A stretch of 62,574 bases of DNA, the filler included, from a bacterium (GTDB lineage Bacteria > UBP15 > UBA6099 > JAJRTR01), in assembly GCA_024278215.1 (NCBI GenBank). It is 5 parts of 5 records of this genome, joined end to end, with 100 filler letters (N's around TTAATTAATTAA, not from the genome) between each part and the next. Parts side by side here need not be neighbours in the genome. Positions count along the whole stretch, not along the records: positions 19,762 to 30,368 come from JAJRTR010000187.1; 4 more parts are not named here. The stretch is one strand, 5' to 3'. The notes under the pieces are model-generated. The model did not search any database. It saw nothing but the letters and a program-made list of their open reading frames with translations, and had not been told where the DNA came from. Numbering within the stretch: the first letter of the stretch is position 1; each line of letters opens with the position of its first letter. Below, in pieces: positions 3,868-56,524 of the stretch. The translations under genes and the position numbers were made by a program.

Positions 3868-4045
3868 GAGCCAATTGCAAAATAATGTTCGAAGCGAGAT
3901 CGAACGAAATTATTAAGAAGCAAGGCAGATGTGCAAAATCCCCGCAGGCGTATCGTGGAGTACGTTGCGGAAGATTTTGCGCCGACAACGCGGTTATGGA
4001 TAATTGCAGTCGACCGCAGCAGAATCAGAATTTTGCAATTGGCTC
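3868..4045 (+). mobile_element. 178-bp MITE, family A copy 1
   Basis: Perfect 16-bp terminal inverted repeat GAGCCAATTGCAAAAT/ATTTTGCAATTGGCTC; aligns end to end with 20346-20524, 22869-23046 and 56168-56329. Confidence 0.9.
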
Positions 4046-7788: not shown

Positions 7789-9068
7789 AATATTCGGCCA
7801 ACCGGCAACGGAACTGTATTCGCCGCATCCGGTATTATAATCCCGTTGCCGCCGAGTTCCATAATTTCGGACATTGCCTGATCTGCGTTTTCCGCCTTTT
7901 TCGCTCCTGTGAGTTGTACATCCGATTCTGGAAGCGATGTGACGAGTATCACCCGTGCCGCAGCTGTTTTCTCGATGATTCTCATTGCAGTGTGTCCGTG
8001 TACGACATATTTATTTCGGAGCGCGTTTTCGATTACGCCGATGCCGCCCATTCTGAACCAGTCGCTGAAGCAGGGTGGGCCGAGTCCGGCGGTGCATTCC
8101 GCGAAAAGCACAATCGTGCCGCCTTTGCGCACTGCCCTGAAGGCATTGTCGAGTGATTTGTGCGACTGATAGAAGTTGATATCGCAGGGATGACCGCCGC
8201 AGGACGCGACAACCCAGTCGGCACGTTGTGTGATTTTCGCCCTGGCATATTTTCGCATATTTGCGCAGGCTGATTCGTGGGCGCGAAGGGGAGAGCCTGC
8301 ATGAAATTCCGCAGGTGCGCCGCCGGTACCCATAATCACGTTTATTCCGAACGAAACATCGACAAAAGCCAAAGCTTCGATCATGTCGCAGTGTATCGGG
8401 TTTCCTGCGAGTTTCAGTGTCGAGGCCTCATGCCGCGTGCCGCCGCCGGGCGCTAGATTAAGGGCGTGATTGGCGAGAATAGTTTCCCTTGCGGCGATGC
8501 CGGGCATTATGCTTTTGCGGCCACCGCTGAAACCTGCATAGTAATGAGGCATTACAACGCCTGTAATAATAAGGTTTGCCGCATCCGTCGCATGACGGTT
8601 TATGCTTACGCGTGTTCCGAGGGAGGTAGTCCCGACATGAAGCAGATTGTCGCCATCGTCGCAATCATGGTCGATCATTTCGACACGGGCGGCGACATCC
8701 GATCCGACAACAGCGCGTTTCTCGTCTTCCGTATGACCATAGTGGGTCCCGGTGGCGAAAAGTATTTTTATCTTATTGTTCGTCACACCCAGGCGGTTGA
8801 GCCTGTCGAGCAGCCGTGGAAGCCAGGCGCGAACGCCATACTTTCTTGTCTTATCTGAAAGCACAATGCAGGTCGGTCCGCCATTTATTATACAATTGTC
8901 GAAAGGCGCGCCGATGCTGTTCTTGTCGAGGGCATCATCGAACGCCGACAAAATTTCATTCTTATCTGTATAGCCGCATGGTAAATCGGGCTGTATAATC
9001 TGAGCCCTGGATGCAATATTATCGGGGATATTATAAACTTTATTTCCGAGTTTTATTGAAACGCCCAT
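7785..9068 (-). CDS. larA: LarA-family nickel-pincer racemase/epimerase (second paralogue)
   Basis: SDKTR, ATGTH, DHDCD, PHYYAGFSGGRKSIMPG, GNPIHCDM, DINFYQSHK. Confidence 0.9.
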   Translation of the reverse strand: MGVSIKLGNKVYNIPDNIASRAQIIQPDLPCGYTDKNEILSAFDDALDKNSIGAPFDNCIINGGPTCIVLSDKTRKYGVRAWLPRLLDRLNRLGVTNNKIKILFATGTHYGHTEDEKRAVVGSDVAARVEMIDHDCDDGDNLLHVGTTSLGTRVSINRHATDAANLIITGVVMPHYYAGFSGGRKSIMPGIAARETILANHALNLAPGGGTRHEASTLKLAGNPIHCDMIEALAFVDVSFGINVIMGTGGAPAEFHAGSPLRAHESACANMRKYARAKITQRADWVVASCGGHPCDINFYQSHKSLDNAFRAVRKGGTIVLFAECTAGLGPPCFSDWFRMGGIGVIENALRNKYVVHGHTAMRIIEKTAAARVILVTSLPESDVQLTGAKKAENADQAMSEIMELGGNGIIIPDAANTVPLPVGRIL

Positions 9069-19761: not shown

Positions 19762-19772
19762 ATGCGCTCGGG

Positions 19773-20195
19773 TTGCAGTTCCATGATACGGACGATGTGC
19801 AGATACCCGGGAAAACATCGTCGTCCGGAGTGGACAGCGGGTCTTCGGCTACCAGATTGTTCGCGGTGATGACCGGCAAGTACTCGTCGGGCACAGGACA
19901 CCTCGGCCTGTATTACCAGACCGGCGACAGCCTTGACAACACGGACTTCGACGGGGTCGGCCTGATGCTCGGGGTCGAGTATCCGCTAAGAAAGAGCATC
20001 GGAACGGGCGAAGACAACATGAGCGTGTTGTTCGAGTTCGACACCAAACCTTTCTATATCGGAAAAACCGGGGCGGCAAGCCTTGGTCTGCGCTATAGGT
20101 TTATGAACGCCGGGCATGTGACGCTCGCAATTGTCGATGTGACGGACGCCGCAATGCTGACCCTGGAAGGCGCATACGATTTCGGCGCGAAATGA
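19773..20195 (+). CDS. Outer-membrane beta-barrel protein, C-terminal fragment (YjbH-like)
   Basis: Amphipathic strands (GVEY, GLRYRF, GAYDF); 5' end lost at the gap. Confidence 0.55.
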   Translation: MQFHDTDDVQIPGKTSSSGVDSGSSATRLFAVMTGKYSSGTGHLGLYYQTGDSLDNTDFDGVGLMLGVEYPLRKSIGTGEDNMSVLFEFDTKPFYIGKTGAASLGLRYRFMNAGHVTLAIVDVTDAAMLTLEGAYDFGAK

Positions 20196-20265
20196 GAGCA
20201 GGCAGGCGGCGGCAAGGAAGCGCCGGGGGCGGTGCAAGGGCGGCGCGAAAAACTGAATAACACGA

Positions 20266-20313
20266 GAGCCGGTTTCAGCCGGATACGGCAGAACGTGATT
20301 TTATGATCGGCTC
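20266..20313. mobile_element. 48-bp internally deleted family A derivative
   Basis: GAGCCG...CGGCTC ends flanked by a direct repeat ACGA on both sides. Confidence 0.6.
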
Positions 20314-20331
20314 ACGAGACGGGAAACAAAT

Positions 20332-21645
20332 ATGAAAAAACACCTGAGCCAGTTGCAAAATTATGTTCGAAGCGAGGTCGAGCGAAATTGGTCTGAAGCA
20401 AGACGCAGGTGCAATATCCGCGCAGGCGTACTTGTAGAGCACGTCGAGGAAGATTTTGCGCCGACATCACATTTGTTGACAATTGCAGCCGACCACCGCC
20501 GAATCGGAATTTTGCAATTGGCCCAAGTGATAATGCTTTTCTCAATCGTTTTGCTTACCGTTCTATCGGCATCGTCGAACATCGCAGATGCCGCAGACCT
20601 TCTCGAACCGCAGGCTCTGTCGTGGAACGCCGGTAAGGTGACACAGGACGAGGGGCGCGCCGACCTGTATTTCGTTTCTCTCGAACCGGGTTTCAGAATA
20701 GGTAACCTGACGGCGGTTATCGGCATCAATTACTATTTCGATGAAGACCTGAAGGTGCGAGACGGCGGCAACGACCTGATAATGCTTTCCTCGCTCGAAT
20801 ATGAAGACCCCAACAGGATGCGCTTATATTACGGCGAGATCGAAAACCTTACGCTCGGCAGCGGTTTCGTAGTCTCCAACTATCGCACGAATGTGACAGG
20901 CAATGTGCCGATGACACGCATGCAGGGCCTCGAACTGGACCTGTGGGGGCCGCGCTCGGCCGTAACGGTGTTCGGCACACGAACCGACCTGCTGGGGCTT
21001 CGCGCCGTGCGCAATATGGGCCGGGTCACCATCGGCACCACCGCCGTCACCGACGCCGAACCGGACTTCGAGGAGATAGCGCTGGACTTGCAGGGAACGA
21101 TCGTGCCGGAGAAATTCTCACTCTATACCGAGGTCGCCTCCATCCAGGATTACGGCGACGGCTTCGCTCTGGGTGTGCTTGCGACACCGCTTCCTTTCGT
21201 AGAGGTCAAAGCCGAGTTGCGCGATTTCGACTCGGACTTCGTGCCCGGCATCGTCGATGAACACTACGAAGCGCGCCCCGTCGTCGAAAGCATCAAGGCC
21301 AACACGACAGGCCGCCTCATGGGCTTCTACTCGGCTGTCGACTTCTTCCGGGGCCGCCGCGTTTCCGCAACTCTAACCTTTGAAGACTACGAAGACTATA
21401 AATCAAGATATACCATCACGGGCCGGGGCAAAATCAACAACCGGATACACGGCGACCTGTTTTTCGCAAAAGAAGATTTCGTGCCGCAGCTCGGCGGGAG
21501 CAGCGAAGATTCCATCGTGCGCGCACACATCTACGTGAAGACGACTAAAAGACTCGACCTCATCTTTGATTTCTATAACGCCTACGACGACAAACGGAAT
21601 ATGCTCGAGTCTCTGACGGTAAAAACAGAATATCACCTGTGGTGA
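20332..21645 (+). CDS. Putative outer-membrane beta-barrel protein carrying an in-frame MITE in its signal peptide
   Basis: Alternating beta-strands, LTLGSGFVVSNY, C-terminal aromatic residue (YHLW); residues ~6-64 derive from the family A repeat. Confidence 0.75.
   Translation: MKKHLSQLQNYVRSEVERNWSEARRRCNIRAGVLVEHVEEDFAPTSHLLTIAADHRRIGILQLAQVIMLFSIVLLTVLSASSNIADAADLLEPQALSWNAGKVTQDEGRADLYFVSLEPGFRIGNLTAVIGINYYFDEDLKVRDGGNDLIMLSSLEYEDPNRMRLYYGEIENLTLGSGFVVSNYRTNVTGNVPMTRMQGLELDLWGPRSAVTVFGTRTDLLGLRAVRNMGRVTIGTTAVTDAEPDFEEIALDLQGTIVPEKFSLYTEVASIQDYGDGFALGVLATPLPFVEVKAELRDFDSDFVPGIVDEHYEARPVVESIKANTTGRLMGFYSAVDFFRGRRVSATLTFEDYEDYKSRYTITGRGKINNRIHGDLFFAKEDFVPQLGGSSEDSIVRAHIYVKTTKRLDLIFDFYNAYDDKRNMLESLTVKTEYHLW
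20346..20524 (+). mobile_element. 179-bp MITE, family A copy 2 (intragenic, in frame)
   Basis: GAGCCAGTTGCAAAAT...ATTTTGCAATTGGCCC, colinear with the other copies. Confidence 0.9.
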
Positions 21646-21675
21646 GAACTCGATTTTCGCAATTCATGATACATG

Positions 21676-21809
21676 ACCCGGCGTAGCCGGAACCGGAATG
21701 GTTGCTTTTTCGTGCCCAAACAAATGCGGTTTGAGCACGGCACACATGGTTTCTTATCGTTCCGGGGCTCCGACCCGGAACGCAGGGACTGAACGCTCCG
21801 CGTTCACCA
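21676..21809. repeat. Composite REP-like repeat (family B, four hairpin modules)
   Basis: Modules recur at 29697-29750, 49916-50025 and 55000-55091. Confidence 0.85.
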
Positions 21810-21849
21810 ATCTCTTTTCATCATTGCAGTCGTGAGATACCAAACATGT

Positions 21850-21937
21850 GGTGTATGGCATAAAAGTGGGTTTGCGCAAAGACAGATACAGATACCGCCC
21901 AAAAACCGCGTTGCCAGTCCCTGTTTTTCGCGCATTT
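21850..21937 (+). mobile_element. Degenerate partial copy of family C MITE
   Basis: GGTGTATGGCATAAAAGTGGGTTT...GCGTTGCCAGTCCCTGTTTTTCGCGCATT aligns with 41254-41339. Confidence 0.7.
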
Positions 21938-21955
21938 CTTATGCGACTTACTTCT

Positions 21956-21993
21956 GAGCTGATTGTAAGATTCCGATTCTGCTGTGGTCGGCT
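21956..21993 (-). mobile_element. Fragment of family A MITE (right end)
   Basis: GAGCTGATTGTAAGATTCCGATTCTGCTGTGGTCGGCT matches 56168-56205. Confidence 0.7.
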
Positions 21994-22016
21994 TATAATA
22001 TTGACACAAAGAAAAA

Positions 22017-22133
22017 TGGGACTTCATGCGAAACGCCCGGGTGCTAACTGATCGATGCCCATTCATCCGTGATCTTAACCCGGACCTCCGTGTCCGTTTG
22101 ACCAGTTCTCTCGGGAACTCACCTGAAATCCCA
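22017..22133 (-). ncRNA. Candidate structured small RNA (~117 nt)
   Basis: 16-bp closing stem with G-U pairs only on the minus strand, internal stems, 3' U-run, AT-rich upstream region. Confidence 0.4.
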
Positions 22134-22263
22134 CTGGAACTTCTTTTATATAGTTATTTATCGGACGCAGATATAAATACTTTAGCATTTTAGCAAATAA
22201 TTATTTTTGTCTTTTTCGGTGTTTCCCGCTTCCCTTTTCGGTTTCAGCTTTGCCGGGTTGGGA

Positions 22264-22292
22264 TAACCCGCATATTTCACAAATGCGGGATA
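22264..22292 (+). repeat. 29-bp palindromic repeat (family D)
   Basis: TAACCCGCATATTTCACAAATGCGGGATA downstream of moaB. Confidence 0.8.
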
Positions 22293-22330
22293 GCCCGTCC
22301 GGGAGGGGCTCCCTGAGCCGCTTGATGCTT

Positions 22331-22828
22331 TCAGCGCGATGCTTCCCAGACTATATGCGCTATCTCGGGGATTATGATCTTTTCCATCGCAAGTGTCACG
22401 GCACCGCTGGAGCCGGGTATGGAGACGACGACTGTGCCGCCCGCGATGCCCGCCACGGCACGGCTCATCATCGCTGCCGGGCCGATGTCTTCGTAGCTTA
22501 GCATCCTGAAAATTTCTCCGAACCCCGGCAGCGTTTTGTCGAGTCTCGCTTCGAGCGCGTCATAAGTCGTGTCGCGGCGTGATATCCCTGTGCCGCCGTT
22601 GAAGATTACAGCCTGGACAGTTTCGGGCATTGTGTCGAGCAAATTGTTTATTTCGGATGTTTCATCTTTTATTATTCTATGGCCTGCGACAATGTGGCCG
22701 GCGGCCTCGAGTTTATCCCGGATTATTGCGCCGCTTGCGTCGGTATCGATCGTTCGCGTGTCGCTGACGGTAACGATAAAAACTTTTACCTGACCGCCGG
22801 CTTTTTCGTGGTGTTCCCTGTGTCCCAT
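22331..22828 (-). CDS. moaB: Molybdenum cofactor biosynthesis protein B (MoaB/Mog)
   Basis: TVSDTR, GGTGISRRDTT, PGFGEIFR, SRAVAG, PGS; GGGGGA RBS before ATG 22828. Confidence 0.92.
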   Translation of the reverse strand: MGHREHHEKAGGQVKVFIVTVSDTRTIDTDASGAIIRDKLEAAGHIVAGHRIIKDETSEINNLLDTMPETVQAVIFNGGTGISRRDTTYDALEARLDKTLPGFGEIFRMLSYEDIGPAAMMSRAVAGIAGGTVVVSIPGSSGAVTLAMEKIIIPEIAHIVWEASR

Positions 22829-22868
22829 GTTTGTTCCCCCGGTGTACGCTGTGATATTACGTATACTT

Positions 22869-23046
22869 GAGCCAATTGCAAAATTCTGATTCTGCTGCGG
22901 TCGGCTGCTATTGTCCATAGCTGCGTGGTCGGCATAAAATCGTCCTCGATGTACTTTACATGTACGCCTGCGAGGATTTTACACCTCCGCCTTGCTCTGA
23001 ACAATTTCGCTCGACCTCGCTACGAACATAATTTTGCAATCGGCTC
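22869..23046 (-). mobile_element. 178-bp MITE, family A copy 3
   Basis: Both TIRs present; starts immediately after the znuB TAA stop, between znuB and moaB. Confidence 0.9.
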
Positions 23047-23913
23047 TTATGAAGATATATCAGACCTCTTGATTTTGCGCCTTCGCAACAGTCTCGAAGC
23101 GGCTGTTACAACGAGGTAACATGCGCCGGCGACAACGATTATCGTCGCGCCCGCGGGCAGATTCGGACTGTAGCTGACCGCGAGTCCCGCCGTAGTGAAC
23201 AACATGCTCAGGAGCACGGACAGGCCCATGATTTTCCATAGTGTGCCGGAGAAATGTCCCGCGACGGCAACGGGCAGGGTGAGTAGTGCTATGACCATTA
23301 TCACGCCGACGACGGAAACTGTCAGAACGACCGTCAACGCTGTAAGGCAGAGCAGCAACAGGTAGTAGAACTCGACATTTATGCCCCGAACACGCGCGAA
23401 TTCTTCGTCGAAGCATATTCCCATAAACTGGTTGTAGAGCAGCAATCCCGCGCCGGCGACAACGACGTCAAGCGTCGCTATCAGCAGGATGTCGCTCGTT
23501 TTTACCATGAGAATATTCCCGAACAGGTAGCTCATCAGGTCTTCATTGTAGCCGGGTGTGCGCGATATGAACAGAACGCCGACCGCCATACCCAGCGCCC
23601 AGAGAGCGCCGATGACCGTGTCCTCGCGCTCTTTGGCGCGGATGCTGACGAAACCGATGATAAATGCTGCCAGAAGCGCTGCCGCCACTGCCCCGTAAAG
23701 GGGATCGAGAAATGACCAGCCGCAGACTTTATTGAGGTAGTTGGCGGCGCCGAGCCCGCCCAGCACACAGTGCGCGATGCCGCCCGCGATGTAGCTTATC
23801 CGCCGCATTATTACATAGGTGCCGATTATGCCGCATGAGACGCTGACAAGCAACCCCGTGATCAGCGCGTATTGCAGGAACGTGTAGTGGCCGACGGCCC
23901 TGATGAATTCCAT
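23047..23913 (-). CDS. znuB: Zn/Mn ABC transporter permease
   Basis: GIAHCVLGG, YLFGNIL, FDEEFAR.RG, PAGATI. Confidence 0.92.
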   Translation of the reverse strand: MEFIRAVGHYTFLQYALITGLLVSVSCGIIGTYVIMRRISYIAGGIAHCVLGGLGAANYLNKVCGWSFLDPLYGAVAAALLAAFIIGFVSIRAKEREDTVIGALWALGMAVGVLFISRTPGYNEDLMSYLFGNILMVKTSDILLIATLDVVVAGAGLLLYNQFMGICFDEEFARVRGINVEFYYLLLLCLTALTVVLTVSVVGVIMVIALLTLPVAVAGHFSGTLWKIMGLSVLLSMLFTTAGLAVSYSPNLPAGATIIVVAGACYLVVTAASRLLRRRKIKRSDISS

Positions 23914-24674
23914 TATCGGCAGTCCTCTCCCGTGCAGTCGTGGTCGTGGCGCACGATCTTGAAATTGCCGCCGTATACTTCGTCCAGCAGGTCGCTGGTT
24001 ATCTCCTCTGTCGGGTGCACCGCTACAGTTCCTTTGACGCAGATGACATTCTTTGTGAAGCGTGTGACGAAGCCGAGATTGTGAGAGACGAGCAGTATGG
24101 TCATGCGGCTGCTGAGGCGACCGAGGAGTTCATTCATGCGTACTTCCGACTTCATGTCCAGACCGGCGGTGGGTTCGTCGAGCAGGAGCAACTCGGGTGC
24201 CGGTGCGATGGCGCGAGCGAGGAGAGCACGGCGCTGCTGGCCGCCGGATAGTGTGGAGAACTGGCGGTTCCTGATATCCGATAGTTGGACTTCGTCGAGC
24301 GCCGCACGCGCGGCCTCTTTATCCGCTCTCGTGTAGGGACCGAAGTTCCTGGCGATGCACAGTCTCCCCATAAGCACAAGGTCCGTGACGCTGACAGGGA
24401 AAAATGGGTCGGATGTCAGGTTCTGGGGCATGTAGCCGATTCGTTTTCCGGCTCGACGTGGCAGCCCGCCCAGTACACTGATGCGACCGCTGTCGGGAGT
24501 GAGGAGCCCCAGGATGAGTTTGAGCAGAGTGCTCTTGCCGCCGCCGTTCGGGCCGACAATGCTGGTGAACGTACCCCGGGCAAGAGCGAAACTGATGTTT
24601 TCCAGCACGGGCGGCCCACCATACGTGAAGCTGACATCATCAAATTCTATTACCGGTTTTTCGGGCAAATGCAA
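23913..24674 (-). CDS. znuC: Zn/Mn ABC transporter ATPase
   Basis: GPNGGGKST, LSGGQQRR, LLLLDEP, VSH, His-containing C-terminus; TTG start inferred from AAGGAAGGA RBS. Confidence 0.92.
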   Translation of the reverse strand: MHLPEKPVIEFDDVSFTYGGPPVLENISFALARGTFTSIVGPNGGGKSTLLKLILGLLTPDSGRISVLGGLPRRAGKRIGYMPQNLTSDPFFPVSVTDLVLMGRLCIARNFGPYTRADKEAARAALDEVQLSDIRNRQFSTLSGGQQRRALLARAIAPAPELLLLDEPTAGLDMKSEVRMNELLGRLSSRMTILLVSHNLGFVTRFTKNVICVKGTVAVHPTEEITSDLLDEVYGGNFKIVRHDHDCTGEDCR

Positions 24675-24686
24675 ATGTCCTTCCTT

Positions 24687-24715
24687 TAACCCGCATATTT
24701 CACCAATGCGGGTTA
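24687..24715 (+). repeat. 29-bp palindromic repeat (family D)
   Basis: TAACCCGCAT-atttcacca-ATGCGGGTTA, perfect 10-bp arms, between znuA and znuC. Confidence 0.8.
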
Positions 24716-24722
24716 AAAACAT

Positions 24723-25643
24723 TCAGGGCTGCCGCGCGAGCGCCGACTTTATTTCCACGGCAATATTTCTTAGATTCTTTATGTAATCATAAGCGAGAGG
24801 GTCGATAGGAACCACCGCGCCGCCGATGGCCCCGGCGATGGCCTCCGCGCTCTTCTTCGAGAACTGCGGCTGCACGAATATCACCCTGACATCTTCGGAC
24901 TTCGCCTTGTTTATCAGACTCGCGATATGCTTCGCGCCGGGTTCTTTGCCGCCTGTTTCCACCGCCATCTGCTGCAATCCATAGGCCCTGGCGAAGTAGC
25001 CGAACGCAGGGTGGAACACATAAATCTTCTTACCTCTGACCGGTTCGAGGGCGGCGCTGATCTCTCTGTTTAACTTGTCGAGGTCCGCGACAACAACCGA
25101 GAGGTTGTAGTCGATTTCATCGGCGTGTTCCGGTACGATTTTCTTAAGATTCGCGGCAATAAGCACCGCCTGTTTTTTTGCCAGCGCGGGGTCGAGCCAC
25201 GTGTGGGGATCGAGTTCCCCGGCCTTGTGCCCGTGTTCTTCATGCTCGTTTTCGCGCGTGTGTGTGTCGAGCATTATTTTATCAATGCCGCTGCTTGTGT
25301 CCACTATGTTGAGATTCTTCAACCTGCCGCTTATATTCTCCAGCAGGTGTTTCTCGAATGGCACACCGATAAGGAATAAGGTTTCGGCGTTGTCCAGTGC
25401 CGCGATCTGGCCTGGTGTGGGGTCATAGGTGGCGGGCGATTGGCCGGGCATCACAAGGACTTTCACGTCGAAATACTTTCCGCCGATACGGTCGACGAAA
25501 TATTTTTGCGGCAGTATGCTGACGTACACCAGCGGCTTGACTCCGCCCTCTTTTTCCGTGCCGGTGCGGGTGCAGGAAGTAAAAAGCAGGCAACATGCGA
25601 AAAAAAGGGAAACACAGGAAGCGGTTTTAAATACATTTGTCAT
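24723..25643 (-). CDS. znuA: Zn/Mn ABC transporter substrate-binding lipoprotein
   Basis: Lipobox FTSC, VSILPQ, His-rich loop, DPHTWL, VFHPAFGYF. Confidence 0.92.
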   Translation of the reverse strand: MTNVFKTASCVSLFFACCLLFTSCTRTGTEKEGGVKPLVYVSILPQKYFVDRIGGKYFDVKVLVMPGQSPATYDPTPGQIAALDNAETLFLIGVPFEKHLLENISGRLKNLNIVDTSSGIDKIMLDTHTRENEHEEHGHKAGELDPHTWLDPALAKKQAVLIAANLKKIVPEHADEIDYNLSVVVADLDKLNREISAALEPVRGKKIYVFHPAFGYFARAYGLQQMAVETGGKEPGAKHIASLINKAKSEDVRVIFVQPQFSKKSAEAIAGAIGGAVVPIDPLAYDYIKNLRNIAVEIKSALARQP

Positions 25644-25808
25644 TTCTCTCGAATCCATTCTGCACAACAACAGTGTTTAAGCAAACATTACAAGGTCGCG
25701 AAACCGCACTAAAAGCCTTACAAGATAATAATGGAGTTGCCCCGCAATATAAATGATAACCGGGAAAATATTGATGTGTGTAACTGGAGGGATGAAAGGG
25801 CCGGCGGG

Positions 25809-26342
25809 TCAGAGTTCCCGCCAGCGCCTGATCTGGATATAGCGGTAGTCATTTATAGCGAAGCCGCTCCATATACGACGCACCTGGGCGCGAACGCGCC
25901 GTGTGTAGGCGTCTGTTGTGCCTGTGGATATTATGTCGATGTAATGATAGAAACGCACGTTCGCGTTGGTATCGGCCTTGTATGTCGACATGGAAACCTG
26001 GTATTTCCAGCCGGTTGTCACGGGCGCGCCGCTTGTGCAGGCGGCCTGCGGGAACGTGTTTGAATATCTGGCATTGAACCTTGGCGGAAAGAAAAGCGGG
26101 AAGGCTCTTATGCGCCAAATATTGTATTCGAGTCCCGATTCGGCGCAGTAGTAAGCCTCCATATCCTCGATCTGGTTCGATATTATTTCGAGATCGGAGA
26201 GGCGCATCATCTCGAGAGTGATCATGAGAGCGCCCGCGAAAAAAATGATGAATACGGCCATGAGGATAACCGAGCCGCGCTCGCCGGAGTTGTCGTTCAA
26301 CGGCTGTTTGCCGCCGGAGTTCTCTTTCATACTTGCTGTCAT
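25809..26342 (-). CDS. PilX-like minor pilin
   Basis: RG|SVILM N-terminus lacking Glu+5, AYYCAESGLE, C-terminal WREL. Confidence 0.75.
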   Translation of the reverse strand: MTASMKENSGGKQPLNDNSGERGSVILMAVFIIFFAGALMITLEMMRLSDLEIISNQIEDMEAYYCAESGLEYNIWRIRAFPLFFPPRFNARYSNTFPQAACTSGAPVTTGWKYQVSMSTYKADTNANVRFYHYIDIISTGTTDAYTRRVRAQVRRIWSGFAINDYRYIQIRRWREL

Positions 26343-27235
26343 GGGTCGATTTTCACCGCCTCCGCATACTGGCAGTTTTCTGTAAACACATCTGAAACGG
26401 TAACTTGCAGGCGATGGCTCGGATTGATGAATCCGAGGCCGGAGCGCACATTGGACGCGACCATATCAATGCAGCCGGCCCAGTAGTCGCCAGGGTTGGT
26501 GTAGGTCAGGTTCCAGGTCCACGAGTTGGGAAAACCGGGGCAGAAGAAGCAGGTCATAGTAACCTGCGCGGTTGACACATATTCCCGGTTGACCCTGTCG
26601 CAGAATGCTTTGACGCACAATTTGCCGGGATTCCCCGCGTTGCCGATGTTGTAATAATAAGTTTCGGACGCGAAAGCAGTTGTGCGTGAAAGCATGTAGC
26701 CGTCGCGGCTTGTGCGCATCTGCACATGGGTCATGAACTGCATCGGGTTCAGGTATGTTGTGCCGGGCAGTATCTGGCGCGCGTCGGAAACCTCGAATCT
26801 GAAACGGAATGAATTGACGATGCGGTGTCGGGTGACGCCCGTAGCCATGCGCCTCGAATAGGCTGTGTATGAAAATGAATCGATGGGCGCCGCCAGCGAG
26901 TCGTTGACGAAGACGGGGCTCTGTGTGCCGAACTCGATGTTGGCTGCGCCATCGTAGTTGAAGCGGTATATGGTGCTGGAGGACCAGTCGGGGTAGAAAT
27001 CGATATATGTCGGATCTGTGCATGATCTGAGGTCGTAGGCTTTGCGGATCTCGCGCCCGAGTTTGCTCATGCCGACCCTGCCGATCTCGAGTGTCTCGAC
27101 ACGCCGGTCCGCTATGCGCCAGGAATTATATGTAGACTCTATCAGCGGAAAAAGTCCGAGCGCGAGCACGGCGACAATAAAAATAACTATTATCACCTCG
27201 ACCAGCGTTATCCCGCGTGTTCTGCTTTCGTCCAT
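26339..27235 (-). CDS. PilW-like minor pilin
   Basis: RG|ITLVE prepilin site, hydrophobic helix, REIRKA. Confidence 0.8.
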   Translation of the reverse strand: MDESRTRGITLVEVIIVIFIVAVLALGLFPLIESTYNSWRIADRRVETLEIGRVGMSKLGREIRKAYDLRSCTDPTYIDFYPDWSSSTIYRFNYDGAANIEFGTQSPVFVNDSLAAPIDSFSYTAYSRRMATGVTRHRIVNSFRFRFEVSDARQILPGTTYLNPMQFMTHVQMRTSRDGYMLSRTTAFASETYYYNIGNAGNPGKLCVKAFCDRVNREYVSTAQVTMTCFFCPGFPNSWTWNLTYTNPGDYWAGCIDMVASNVRSGLGFINPSHRLQVTVSDVFTENCQYAEAVKIDP

Positions 27236-27241
27236 AGTTTG

Positions 27242-27772
27242 CTACCAGTCGGGCGGTCTCTTCGCTATCTGTGTCTCGAGAAAAACGTCCGGGTCCTTGG
27301 GGTCCAGCGTACCGTTGCTGTCCTTATCGTACCATACACGGACCTGGATGTATCCCAGCGCGTCGTTCGTCCCCGGCACCAGTCCTGTGTCCACCGTGCA
27401 TTCATATTTCTGGAAAGGGTAGGGAAAAGAACAGGCGGCGGCGTTTTCCGTAAGGGTGGGCGCGGCAGCCGGGTTCAGGCGTCCGAAGTCCGATGTAGTG
27501 CCGCTCATGGGGCAGCCGTTGACGGGCGCGGCCCCGTAGTCTGTGTAACATGACGCCCGCGAACGCACTTCCTCGATTTTCAACTGTGCGAGAAAAGCGG
27601 CGTGAGTGAGATATTCCTCGTCGTTACTCTCCTCGAGTGCGGAAGCCATCACCCGCATAATAGGATATATCACTATCGTCATCACAATGATTGTGACGAC
27701 GATCTCGACAAGTGTAAACCCGCCGGAGCCGGCGACTTTTTCTCCTCTTAAATATTTCATAGCGAATTTCAT
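27242..27772 (-). CDS. PilV-like minor pilin
   Basis: GG|FTLVE prepilin site, LAQLKIEE, IQVRVWY. Confidence 0.8.
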   Translation of the reverse strand: MKFAMKYLRGEKVAGSGGFTLVEIVVTIIVMTIVIYPIMRVMASALEESNDEEYLTHAAFLAQLKIEEVRSRASCYTDYGAAPVNGCPMSGTTSDFGRLNPAAAPTLTENAAACSFPYPFQKYECTVDTGLVPGTNDALGYIQVRVWYDKDSNGTLDPKDPDVFLETQIAKRPPDW

Positions 27773-27782
27773 TTGTTTATTG

Positions 27783-28304
27783 TCACAACTCGTAAAGTTC
27801 GATCTTGCCCGTGCCCCGTACGACACTGACACGCCACCGGTAGAGGCTGTTGACATCCTCGACCAGGATCGTGCCGCCCGTATAGGGGTGCGGCCCGCCG
27901 CGGGAGTCGAAATAAAAAGCGTTTGTCGCCGTGTTCGAAAGCCGCAGGCCTTCCTCGATAGTCACCGTTTTTATCGGTGCCGCGCTGCTCCCGTAGGTGC
28001 TGTATATCCGCCAGCTGTCGGTGGCGGTGCCGACAGTGTACAACTCGAGCCGGAAGGCCGGTTCCTGAGAAAGGCTTGTTGCGGTGTTGCCGTTGAGCCC
28101 GCCGCCCATCGCCAGCCGTCTCGAGTAGCGAAGGTCGGCGGCAAGGTCGTGCGCCGTCGAATACACATGATGTTTTATGATCGCCAGCTTCGTGTAGCGC
28201 GGCACGAACATCTTATAGAGTATCGCGACAAGGACAAGAATAAGCAGCAACTCGACAATGGTAAACCCTTTCTGCGATTTTATCCTGTCCACAGTTATGC
28301 GCAA
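27783..28304 (-). CDS. FimT/GspH-like minor pilin
   Basis: KG|FTIVE prepilin site, LAADLRYSR.LA, FDSRG, TGKI. Confidence 0.8.
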   Translation of the reverse strand: MRITVDRIKSQKGFTIVELLLILVLVAILYKMFVPRYTKLAIIKHHVYSTAHDLAADLRYSRRLAMGGGLNGNTATSLSQEPAFRLELYTVGTATDSWRIYSTYGSSAAPIKTVTIEEGLRLSNTATNAFYFDSRGGPHPYTGGTILVEDVNSLYRWRVSVVRGTGKIELYEL

Positions 28305-28373
28305 TGCCTCCGGGCACTATTACCCATCATGGATGAAATACTACAATTAGATTATACCACAGGAAAAAGTTAG

Positions 28374-29198
28374 TCAAACTTCCAGAATCATTCCCTCGCG
28401 GGCGGAAATCGTGTTTTTGAAGAGTTTCTTCGCTTTTCTTTCGATGCTGCGGAGCGTTTTATCGTCATGGGTAGGTTCGTGATGAAACAGAACCAGCTTC
28501 TTCACGCCCGCTCTTCCGGCTATCCCCACAGCGGCCTCGTATGTGCTGTGGCCCCATCCGATACGTCCATGATCGTACTGCTCAGGTGTATACTGCGCGT
28601 CATACAACAGTATGTCGGCGTCCCTGATGTTTTCAATGTATGTGTCGATGTCTTCTCCGAATTCATGCTCGGTATCGCTGGAGTAGCATACCGCCCTGCT
28701 GCCTTCCTGAACCCTGAAACCCATCACTTCCTGGGGATGCACCAGCCAGAATGGCGTTATGAGGCAGTCGCCGACTTCCACACCGCCTTCTTTCATTGTG
28801 TGAAAGTGTTTTTCCGACTGTGTCTGGTTGAAATCGAGAGGGAAGTAGGGCGCTTTCATCTGCGCGGCGAGGTGTTTCCTCATATTCTTATTGCCGTAAA
28901 AATGAATCGTGAAATCGCTCAGAAGAAGCGGGATGAAGAAAGGCATACCCTGAATGTGGTCCCAGTGGACGTGTGAAATAAACAGGTGAATAGTTCGGGT
29001 GCTATTCTTGCGCTTGATATAGTCGAGCCCGAACTCGCGAATGCCCGTACCCGCGTCCAGAATGATTATATTCCCGTCCGCAGCCTCCACCTCGACGCAA
29101 CTCGTGTTCCCGCCGAACTCGACCGTTTTCTCACCGGGCGTTGGAATGCTGCCCCTGACTCCCCAGAACCTTACTCTCATATCCTCCGGCCTTTTCAC
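28374..29198 (-). CDS. MBL-fold metallo-hydrolase
   Basis: FWGVRGSIP, GGNTSC, DAGTG, SHVHWDHIQG, GWGHS, FHHEP. Confidence 0.92.
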   Translation of the reverse strand: MKRPEDMRVRFWGVRGSIPTPGEKTVEFGGNTSCVEVEAADGNIIILDAGTGIREFGLDYIKRKNSTRTIHLFISHVHWDHIQGMPFFIPLLLSDFTIHFYGNKNMRKHLAAQMKAPYFPLDFNQTQSEKHFHTMKEGGVEVGDCLITPFWLVHPQEVMGFRVQEGSRAVCYSSDTEHEFGEDIDTYIENIRDADILLYDAQYTPEQYDHGRIGWGHSTYEAAVGIAGRAGVKKLVLFHHEPTHDDKTLRSIERKAKKLFKNTISAREGMILEV

Positions 29199-29696
29199 TC
29201 ACTATACATTTTTGTGCTGAACATTATTAATCAGATTATTTAACCAAACATGTTATCAGAGACCCGACGAAATGTTCAAGAATAATCTGAAAATAATCAA
29301 TTTTGGAAAAACACGGGTCTCTACTCCGGACATGACCTGTGTCTGTGCAAACAGTTTTCGGGTAATATACGCTTGGGCGGGATCCGGTGATCCCGTCCTT
29401 GATTCATGTGTAACAAGTGGTCTCCAGCCATTTCCCGAATCTGTTGAAAAGCTGCTGTTTTCTTTGATGCGCTCCGCTGTGCGAGTTCGGTAGTGAAGAA
29501 ACAAAAGCCTCTTCGCTATTTGGTGTGGGTAGAGAAATGTAGTGTGCCGGAGGATAACCAAATGTTTGCAAAGACCTATGTAGAGTTTTCCACAAATCCA
29601 CCGTCCGGCAATCCTGTGGAATTGCCGGGAAACGGTGAGTATTGTGGTAAACTCGGCTCGATAGCTATGAGTTTTCCGTGCACACCGAAGTTTTTA

Positions 29697-29750
29697 TGGT
29701 GAACGCGGAGTGTTCAGTCCCTGCGTTCCGGGACAGCACCGCGGAACGCA
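29697..29750. repeat. Family B modules (inverted)
   Basis: TGGTGAACGCGGAGTGTTCAGTCCCTGCGTTCCGGG is the reverse complement of 21774-21809 with one mismatch. Confidence 0.8.
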
Positions 29751-29892
29751 GAGGGGAAATGCACATCGCAGTCGGCTCGATGTGAAGGAATCGGATTGCG
29801 ATAGTACAAAGCCACTCGCCTGCTTGCTTTGAGAACATCCGTGCAGTAAGATACTCGGGATAAATTATGACAAAAAGTGCTGGGAGAATATC

Positions 29893-30368
29893 ATGCGAGT
29901 TGTAGTGACAGGCGGTGCGGGATTTCTCGGTTCGCATCTTTGCGAAAGACTTCTCAAAGACGGCCACGAAGTAATCTGCATGGACAATTTCATTACCGGT
30001 TCGAGCGATAATATCAGCCATCTGCTCGGCGAGAAATTCACATTTATACAGTATGATGTAACTAATTACCTTGCGGTGGAGGGTGGGGTCGACCTGGTAA
30101 TGCATTTCGCCAGTCCGGCAAGCCCGATAGATTATCTCGAACTTCCTATCGAAACGATGAAAGTCGGTTCGCTCGGCACACACAAAGCCCTTGGGCTGGC
30201 GAAGGCCAAGGGCGCGACCTTCCTGATCGCATCGACATCCGAGACTTACGGCGACCCGCTCGAACACCCGCAGAAGGAAACTTGCTGCGGGAATGTCAAC
30301 CCCATCGGTCCCTGCGGTGTGTACGACGAGGCAAAGCGCTTCTCGGCAGCCATGACTATAGCCTATCA
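29893..30368 (+). CDS. UDP-glucuronate decarboxylase-like SDR, N-terminal fragment
   Basis: [36 protein letters not shown]; truncated at contig end. Confidence 0.92.
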
Positions 30369-31240
30369 NNNNNNNNNNNNNNNNNNNNNNNNNNNNNNNN
30401 NNNNNNNNNNNNTTAATTAATTAANNNNNNNNNNNNNNNNNNNNNNNNNNNNNNNNNNNNNNNNNNNNAGGGAACCTTGAAGATCGACCCCGGCTATCGC
30501 GCCGTAAGGTTTATACGGTATCGCGGTGCTGCCCGGTTCCTTGCTCTGGAGATGATACGGTGTTTCCCATCAGCCGAATGGATAGAAGTTGTAGTATTAT
30601 TGTTCACTGTAAACTTTTTCATTATCCCCTCGCTTTTCGTTTCCGTCCGGCATTCTTTATTTTGCTTCTACTATAGTTATCGCCTGTTTTTATAGTTGCT
30701 AAACGTGATTTCGTGTAACATCGCTCACACTCGCCGAGTGATGTTTGTCACTCTTGCACTTCAGACCGGTTATCACGAGAATGTCCGTTCCCGGGATTAT
30801 CAAGCACTCACGCACCCTGATTTCTTTCTTTCTTGATTCGTCATTTTTTCTCGTCGTTTCCATGTTGTACTCCCCTTTTCACTTTTTTGTTTTCTCGAGT
30901 GAAGGTTCGCTTGTTTTGTCGTCCTCGTCCCTTCAATCGCCATGACTACGCGGCTGCATAGCGTTTTATTGTGCCGGGTGACGTACATCACAGAATTTTT
31001 GTTTTTCGCGTGAGCTGCATCACGGAAAAGCAATTGTTATGTGACCTGCGTCACGGATGTCCCGGTCATAAACCGCCTTCACCCGCAAACCTGACATTTC
31101 TGCAACATTTCACAATTCCTTGTGTGAAATATGGTACTATTTCCATTAATGTATACAATATAATGGATGTATAATGAGAAGAATAGCGGATTTTAGCAAC
31201 TTTGAGCGCGAATAAAGCACAATACACAACAACTACACCA

Positions 31241-36079: not shown

Positions 36080-36570
36080 CATGTGACATGCCTGCTATTT
36101 CATTTCATAACCCGCGCGGTCCGGAAGTGCCGTTCCCCGGATTCTTTGTGAAAAACCCTGAGCATATATTCAGGACTCCTGACCTGGGAGAAGGGTAGAA
36201 AAGAGGGCATGGCGAGAGTGGCACACAAAAAAGCGTATGAATAAAGGAAAAATGTCGAGTGGAGAGAAAGATAACAAAATATGACGGGACGCTACAAAGG
36301 GAAAAAAGAAATGATAAAATATAGGGAACACATACATCAGTGAGTGGGNNNNNNNNNNNNNNNNNNNNNNNNNNNNNNNNNNNNNNNNNNNNTTAATTAA
36401 TTAANNNNNNNNNNNNNNNNNNNNNNNNNNNNNNNNNNNNNNNNNNNNAGACCACTACAAAATTGCTATCTACTTCCACTGCGGCGGTCTCAATCTTTAT
36501 CCGGAAATAGCTCAATGAAAGGAATTATCATGCGCTCGGACTTGCACCACAACATCTTGTGGCTACCCAC

Positions 36571-49915: not shown

Positions 49916-50025
49916 ACCCGGCAAAGCCGGAACCAAACAGGCCGCATTTTCGTGCCCAAACAAATGCGGTTTGAGCACGGCACACGCACGGTCTACGGTT
50001 TGAGTACGGCACACAGAGTTTCATC
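49916..50025. repeat. Composite REP-like repeat (family B)
   Basis: ACCCGGCAAAGCCGGAACC plus a 39-bp core identical to 21707-21745 plus a partial tandem duplication. Confidence 0.85.
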
Positions 50026-54999: not shown

Positions 55000-55091
55000 C
55001 GTTCCGGGGCTACGACCCGGAACGTATGTAAACAGGCCACTTTTTCGTGCCCAAACAAAAGCGGTTTGAGCACGGCACACAGAGTTTTATC
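55000..55091. repeat. Composite REP-like repeat (family B, modules in swapped order)
   Basis: CGTTCCGGGGCTACGACCCGGAACG followed by the 39-bp core at 55042-55080. Confidence 0.85.
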
Positions 55092-56329: not shown

Positions 56330-56524
56330 NNNNNNNNNNNNNNNNNNNNNNNNNNNNNNNNNNNNNNNNNNNNTTAATTAATTAANNNNNNNNNNNNNNN
56401 NNNNNNNNNNNNNNNNNNNNNNNNNNNNNTAGTTTTCTCCGCGTCGGCGAGCAACGTATCCTACGGCGGATACAGCGCTGGAGCTCTGGAGACATCGGGA
56501 ACGTATGGCGACGGCCTTCTCGAA

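Follow-up and report, generated by a model that had tools for sequence, protein, structure and literature searches.

A porin-like gene in the analysed stretch of bacterial DNA (the window, 62,574 nt in all) carries within its signal peptide a transposable element of the miniature inverted-repeat kind (MITE), which very probably inserted in frame into ancestral coding sequence. The element, called copy 2 here, appears to have split the ancestral MKK..IMLFSIVLL...ADA leader between its n- and h-regions, and the 437-aa open reading frame (ORF) of the gene runs through it uninterrupted. The window consists of five contigs (C162, C165, C166, C171 and C181) placed end to end and is not one molecule; because the contigs are artificially joined, features on the two sides of a joiner are no real neighbours. 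Both the gene and copy 2 lie on contig C165 (window 19762-30368). The genome itself is a draft of 207 contigs and 4,548,219 bases, 95% complete. It was compared with 12 other genomes of the same order and with 13 database homologues of the protein.

The anatomy of the insertion can be read directly from the DNA. The ORF starting at ATG 20332 extends to 21645, the ORF list and direct reading being in agreement, and the element sets in 14 nt past the A of this start codon. In the frame of the gene, which is sense frame 1 of the MITE, it reads SQLQNYVRSEVERNWSEARRRCNIRAGVLVEHVEEDFAPTSHLLTIAADHRRIGILQLA with no stops and forms residues 6-64 of the 437-aa product. Together with a 4-bp target-site duplication (TSD) the 179-nt element amounts to 183 nt, i.e. 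61 codons, and the downstream frame is kept. The preliminary description of this DNA had reported a 179-bp repeat, stop-free in frame, at this distance into the gene and had derived the same 61 codons; direct reading, the ORF list and recalculation agree with it on these points, and also on its caveat that the flanks ACCT and AAGT are identical at only two of four positions. Copy 2 differs from the consensus of its 179-nt subfamily at 21 positions, the subfamily median being 12. With its decayed TSD and a divergence above the median, the insertion is old. As RNA the element (with 5-nt flanks) would fold into a long hairpin of −74.0 kcal/mol, and the fold of the region 20320-20560 reaches −77.9 kcal/mol (z = −3.5 vs shuffles).

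The state of the leader before the insertion can be reconstructed from relatives. Each of the 12 other genomes of the order that were searched has an orthologue of the mature part (39-50% identity over full-length matches), and the leaders of these 12 loci and of all 13 database homologues of the mature protein are contiguous, about 20-30 residues long and free of any insert, with orthologue n-regions of the M-K/R-K/R type. The leaders were compared by eye without a multiple alignment, and signal-peptide features were assessed by inspection. The closest homologue, P0002 (77% identity), starts with MKRILVMFLAALGLIAVACAGARA (MKRILVMF...) and continues with ADLLEPQALSW. The window gene reads MKK, HL, 59 element residues, QV and IMLFSIVLLTVLSASSNIADA, followed by the same ADLLEPQALSW, so that MKK is set apart from IMLFSIVLLTVL-SASSNIADA by the insert. 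When 183 nt are removed, MKK, two residues and IMLFSIVLL... form a 26-residue leader colinear with that of P0002, in line with the earlier statement that excision restores a Sec signal. Since the leaders of all 25 orthologues are short and uninterrupted, it is the element that would have divided an ancestral leader. Signal peptidase I substrates commonly follow the A-x-A rule and, given the conserved ADLLEP start, cleavage is predicted after ADA.

Among the orthologues, in which the preliminary description had suggested looking for the empty site, all 25 leaders were found uninterrupted; the DNA of a close relative was not found. Among metagenome contigs, 104 pattern matches were obtained with the mature protein as query, none of which was confirmed, and an exact 32-nt pattern taken from just past the element gave no match.

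The element belongs to a large family. With copy 2 as the blastn query, 405 matches were found in the genome; 224 of them extend over nearly the full length, and the other 181 are partial. When 211 copies were aligned with their flanks, the family showed sharp ends, GAGCCAATTGCAAAAT ... ATTTTGCAATTGGCTC marking the exact points at which conservation falls from about 90% or more to the background level. These sequences are the terminal inverted repeats (TIRs), 16 nt long and conserved at about 90% or more in each column; with up to two mismatches allowed, the genome contains 352 left and 348 right ends. For 204 copies both ends could be placed, and 124 of these have identical 4-bp flanks, compared with about 4 expected from shuffled pairing, and no TSD signal was present at other lengths besides a 5-bp tail. 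Perfect TSDs are 79% A+T. The length is 178-179 nt in 173 of the 204 delimited copies, which form a 178-nt class (105 copies) and a 179-nt class (68 copies). Short, with TIRs, a 4-bp TSD and many dispersed copies, the family is a textbook MITE. No Rfam family matched the region 19762-30368. As many as 69 partial matches touch contig ends, and the family is therefore a major cause of the fragmentation of the assembly into 207 contigs.

The host protein has no Pfam family. Its AlphaFold2 model, based on 14 sequences, is an all-beta barrel (mean predicted local distance difference test score 73.1, predicted template-modelling (TM) score 0.64), in which DSSP assigns 20 strands of at least 3 residues. 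A Foldseek search against the PDB gave 210 matches at E ≤ 0.001 with porins on top, the best being DcaP, the Rhodopseudomonas blastica porin, Campylobacter MOMP and Veillonella OmpM1, with E values of about 1e-6 and low TM scores of 0.3-0.4. The C-terminal residue is W or F in all seven family sequences examined. Judged from the model, a porin-like outer-membrane beta-barrel is a fair description of the protein, which accords with its preliminary designation as an outer-membrane protein. The 372-codon mature part is free of stops and frameshifts, and 50 of 50 invariant columns of a 14-sequence alignment are kept. Because this is so despite an old insertion, the gene as a whole appears to be alive.

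The preliminary description went further and proposed a new family specialised for coding sequence, with a conserved peptide, similar to the Rickettsia palindromic elements (RPEs). To be counted in our screen of the 405 matches, a frame had to be open through the match and at least 40 codons on each side; to train the coding score, 1412 ORFs with 400 codons or more were used, and in-frame 60-codon pieces score 0.01, 0.29 and 0.52 at the 5th, 50th and 95th percentiles. Eighteen frame/match combinations passed as open, none of them coding-like on both sides, and an in-frame copy between coding-like flanks of at least 40 codons was found in 0 of the 405 matches. A tblastn search of the genome with the 59-aa peptide, suggested earlier as a means of counting in-frame insertions, gave 465 matches, none beyond the blastn set. 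As all 465 overlap blastn matches, there are no older copies detectable as protein only. Where other copies read into long ORFs (on contigs C139, C144, C129, C64, C6, C44 and others), a recognisable gene start is located 20-70 codons downstream, such as MKNIKITVSILLF..., the lipoprotein-like MKRIAAIMLIMFAVAAVAGC... or MKKGKEKIALVTGANKG... Because these gene starts lie past the element, the copies concerned are situated in 5' leaders, i.e. in 5'-untranslated regions. Copy 2 is the only copy found inside coding sequence of this genome.

An apparent mid-gene insertion, copy 3, was the single positive of an in-silico excision screen and was rejected as an artefact: it directly follows the TAA stop of the ABC-permease-like gene 23047-23913, and its flanks form no exact TSD. 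The open frame noticed earlier in copy 3 does exist (ORF 22786..23004, minus strand), the copy itself being intergenic. It also artificially extends ORF 22331-22918 (minus strand) of a MoCF/MogA-like gene, where the Pfam match begins at residue 48 and the true start is likely to be ATG 22828. When 23 coding-like ORFs of at least 80 codons running up to a copy were inspected, 13 stopped at most 2 nt before the element and 5 stopped 18 nt inside it. Several copies lie in the last codons of coding-like ORFs or over their stop codons, with the element providing a new stop 18-24 nt in, and gene 3' ends are a favoured surviving site. This is the pattern of a MITE that seeks A+T and whose surviving copies crowd gene boundaries, and copy 2 is the 5' counterpart.

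The open frame of the element could in principle be a product of selection. Each class consensus has one open frame of six, which differs between the classes: antisense frame 2 in the 178-nt class, open in 92/105 copies, and sense frame 1, as in copy 2, in the 179-nt class, open in 48/68. After omission of the copies that are out of register by indels (7 of the 178-nt and 5 of the 179-nt class), the frame is open in 86 of 98 usable 178-nt copies against 82.1 expected from simulation, and in 47 of 63 usable 179-nt copies against 34.7; the simulation treats copies as independent, and shared ancestry inflates the observed retention. For copy 2 itself, 21 random substitutions placed on the 179-nt consensus left the frame open in 37% of 20,000 trials, and 7 of its 19 changed codons are synonymous, stop avoidance and synonymous share being tests without power for copy 2. 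It is the readable frame of most copies, and the modest excess in the 179-nt class, that speak for an RPE-like family, whereas the 178-nt class shows no excess, the search for coding-like flanks yielded no case and the tblastn search no new copy, the one apparent mid-gene site was due to an abutting stop codon, and copies concentrate at gene ends and in A+T-rich spacers. For this genome the RPE-like reading is largely refuted, with retention near neutral, and we regard it as very improbable.

Chance seems to account for the frame well enough. Only the 179-nt class gives, with its 4-bp TSD, a length divisible by three; 178-nt copies with TSD add 182 nt and would shift the frame. Because 179-nt copies have a mean of 96/68 = 1.4 open frames of 6, about one in four random insertions of this class (~24%) would be expected to read through. 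A single survivor out of about 400 insertions is nothing remarkable, and the A+T-rich TSDs fit a target such as ATGAAAAAAC. The insertion is a tolerated accident and not an adaptation.

A MITE of the 179-nt subfamily very probably inserted in the AT-rich first codons and separated the MKK n-region from the hydrophobic core. As element and TSD added 183 nt and the single open frame of the subfamily by chance had the right phase, the ORF that begins at the ancestral ATG 20332 remained intact. The start used, export and cleavage we infer as follows. Translation would start mainly from this ATG and give a pre-protein with an 87-residue leader, in which the element-encoded tail ...DHRRIGILQLA would add positive charges and lengthen the hydrophobic core; signal peptidase would cut after ADA, leaving the mature barrel unchanged. 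On paper the long form is still signal-like, with two arginines before the lengthened hydrophobic run and an A-D-A motif (by inspection). ATG 20332 has kept its native upstream region with GGGA at −11..−8. In this genome a Shine-Dalgarno 4-mer core occurs within −18..−3 of 28.2% of 3133 proxy starts vs 7.9% of 2821 internal ATGs, and G is enriched at −12..−7 of the proxy starts. We put the chance of the long form being the main product at about even.

Several points weigh against the long form and its history as given here. In the protein database the gene is called from ATG 20533 (P0001, 370 aa), a codon with an unpaired probability of 0.87 compared with 0.33 for ATG 20332. The −74 kcal/mol hairpin, 14 nt past ATG 20332, may depress initiation there, and export could become slower, or cleavage by signal peptidase be prevented, owing to a 66-residue extension and a core lengthened to about 21 residues. 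The inserted frame shows no sign of selection (P open = 0.37; 7/19 synonymous). A closer relative with the same insertion was not found, and P0002 is known from protein alone.

It is possible, although we consider it rather unlikely, that the element merely serves as a 5' leader and that translation starts at ATG 20533 (MLFSIVLLTVLSASSNIADA...) or GTG 20527, yielding a short signal peptide that lacks a charged n-region; the old ATG 20332 would then be irrelevant or the source of a minor long form only. The database call and the accessible ATG 20533 favour such a start, the hydrophobic core and cleavage region are complete after it, and the open frame upstream needs no selection. However, no Shine-Dalgarno-like core is present in the 15 nt ahead of either GTG 20527 or ATG 20533. 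Their −15..−4 regions are in the hairpin stem, with mean unpaired probabilities of 0.08 and 0.18 vs 0.31 for ATG 20332, and GTG 20527 itself is paired (unpaired probability 0.02); overall, predicted RNA accessibility does not separate the candidate starts cleanly. At least one K or R precedes the core in 18 of 18 distinct orthologue leaders (by eye, from 11 relatives' loci and 6 homologues that overlap in part), while the 370-aa form has neither. A consensus scan found no promoter-like site on the plus strand inside the element; the single site that it returned lies within the element on the minus strand and was given no weight, and no terminator was found.

The same hairpin beside the start codon and the interrupted leader could also mean that the insertion crippled expression or export, the gene now being silent or decaying as an early pseudogene. 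One relative (G008) has a paralogue-like second match, so such genes may be dispensable. Such decay is improbable in view of the age of the copy (TSD 2/4, 21 mismatches), since all 372 codons and the 50 invariant positions have nevertheless survived. At the other extreme, the 179-nt subfamily might be pre-adapted to export signals and the insertion a domesticated expression or export valve instead of a neutral scar. The open frame of the 179-nt consensus ends with ...DRSRIRILQLA, where a hydrophobic run comes after a basic patch; if the subfamily were pre-adapted, its frame dropped between n- and h-regions would rebuild a working extended Sec leader, and if the valve were real, the hairpin would throttle or condition translation of the porin. 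We consider this idea quite improbable. Finally, a repeat of about 400 copies, 69 of them partial and at contig ends, does disturb assembly and might have joined two unrelated loci. An assembly chimera is nonetheless extremely improbable here, as both flanks together make up one signal peptide matching the orthologues. In addition, at 10 of the 11 relatives' loci examined by tblastn, the orthologue has immediately upstream of it a homologue of the gene that precedes the element, and this synteny argues that the join is genuine. An in-frame insertion into the ancestral leader, with translation continuing from ATG 20332, thus remains the reading that we prefer.

In-frame MITE fusion, also within a signal peptide, has already been published, and copy 2 does not represent a new class of element. 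In a 2024 review of prokaryotic MITEs, in-frame fusion of MITE ORFs with genomic ORFs is called 'not unusual', with the Rickettsia RPEs as the extreme (PMC10969869), and in-frame fusions are listed for ERIC, the short Correia form and the Yersinia 168-bp repeat (Delihas, PMC2229807). According to the latter paper, a MITE forms part of the signal peptide of Yersinia pestis YPO1552, a putative exported protein. For the Coxiella QMITEs, in-frame insertions and C-terminal extensions are described (PMC5896051). In the open-access text, no closer precedent than YPO1552 was found for a conserved exported protein whose leader is split by a MITE or palindrome.

The present family resembles ERIC/IRU, Correia, YPAL/RU-2 and the QMITEs in being short, with inverted-repeat ends, a hairpin, an open frame and occasional in-frame fusion. 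Unlike in those fusions, the host here is a conserved, syntenic barrel gene with a known ancestral leader, split between the n- and h-regions, and not a new ORF assembled from the repeat; there is probably no sequence relationship to those families, Rfam having given no match. Like the RPEs, the family is a palindromic repeat, about 150-180 bp in length, whose translation within a host protein need not destroy that protein (PMC10969869, PMC2229807). RPEs, however, are described there as recurrent in many conserved genes, with dozens of in-frame cases (Ogata et al. 2000, 2002, via PMC10969869 and PMC2229807), whereas the MITE here has one in-frame case among 405 matches, is otherwise intergenic, and has clean TIRs and a 4-bp TSD. 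The long N-terminal extension ahead of an n-h-c signal also recalls the extended signal peptides of autotransporters and two-partner secretion. Those are conserved, family-typical domains (PMC2805444), in contrast to the lineage-specific transposon remnant found here, which shows no sign of selection.

The value of the case is that of a natural example with a known 'before' state, documented by 25 orthologues, in which 61 residues have been inserted between the charged and the hydrophobic parts of a Sec signal. It offers a ready construct with which to find out the amount of N-terminal ballast that is tolerated by a bacterial signal peptide. It is also a warning for annotation, as about 400 copies break the assembly, lengthen adjoining ORFs artificially and shift start calls.

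Outside this genome, no match to the MITE was obtained in 11 of the order's 12 other genomes, and the twelfth (G011) gave one marginal match (E = 5.6e-4). A 24-nt degenerate pattern gave no exact matches in the genome contig collection, and no match to the MITE was found in plasmids. With a gapped pattern of the two TIRs, ten loci (L021-L030) were obtained in magnetotactic Nitrospirota genomes and one Verrucomicrobiae genome. The MITEs at these loci are 174-199 nt long, and their interiors are unrelated to that of the present family, alignment being confined to the 16-nt ends. Given shared ends and unrelated interiors, separate MITE families have arisen independently in different phyla from one type of transposase end.

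An autonomous insertion sequence with these TIRs was not found, either in the 95%-complete draft genome or with the Nitrospirota ends. Seven pairs of TIRs 300-4000 nt apart in the genome enclose ordinary genes and no transposases, and six solo-TIR sites in two Nitrospirota genomes again proved to be MITEs, of about 198 nt. PF05598 was not found in the genome. Two C-terminal remnants resembling PF13751 (DDE_Tnp_1_6) scored 23.8 and 21.4 bits, under the cut-off of 25.1, and these are the sole transposase trace possibly related to the missing autonomous partner. The coordinates of all features are collected in Table 1.

Table 1. Features of the window and, where a contig is named, of other parts of the genome
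Feature	Position	Strand	Remarks
Ancestral start codon ATG of the porin-like gene	20332..20334	+	AAA AAA follows (MKK, original n-region)
Left TSD copy, ACCT, decayed	20342..20345	+	TSD of the family exact over 4 bp in 124/204 copies
MITE copy 2, 179 nt	20346..20524	+	left TIR 20346-20361, right TIR 20509-20524
Right TSD copy, AAGT	20525..20528	+	direct reading
Alternative in-frame starts, GTG 20527 and ATG 20533	20527..20535	+	database gene call starts at ATG 20533
Putative original signal peptide h- and c-regions, IMLFSIVLLTVLSASSNIADA	20530..20592	+	by-eye comparison with orthologue leaders
Predicted mature part, porin-like beta-barrel of an unnamed family, end ...EYHLW	20593..21645	+	structure prediction, Foldseek
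Upstream neighbour gene, cut by contig start	19773..20195	+	syntenic with the porin-like gene in relatives
MITE full copy, 178-nt class	3868..4045	+	same family
MITE full copy, copy 3, 178-nt class, intergenic	22869..23046	−	directly after TAA stop of 23047-23913
MITE partial copy, truncated by contig end	56164..56329	−	same family
MITE copies at ORF 3' ends	C191:10291-10468, C179:2943-3120, C108:4920-5097, C160:69600-69777, others		
DDE_Tnp_1_6-like remnants	C188:8625-8795, C62:33079-33195		the first abuts a MITE copy, 8828-9005
Artificial contig joiners, N runs centred on TTAATTAATTAA	19662-19761, 30369-30468, 36349-36448, 56330-56429		

Other, unrelated repeats are also present in the window. 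A second family consists of 70-nt direct repeats (21676-21745, 49916-49985 and 55011-55080), and a pair of 52-nt inverted repeats lies at 21758-21809 and 29697-29748. One repeat of the second family starts about 30 nt past the stop of the porin-like gene.

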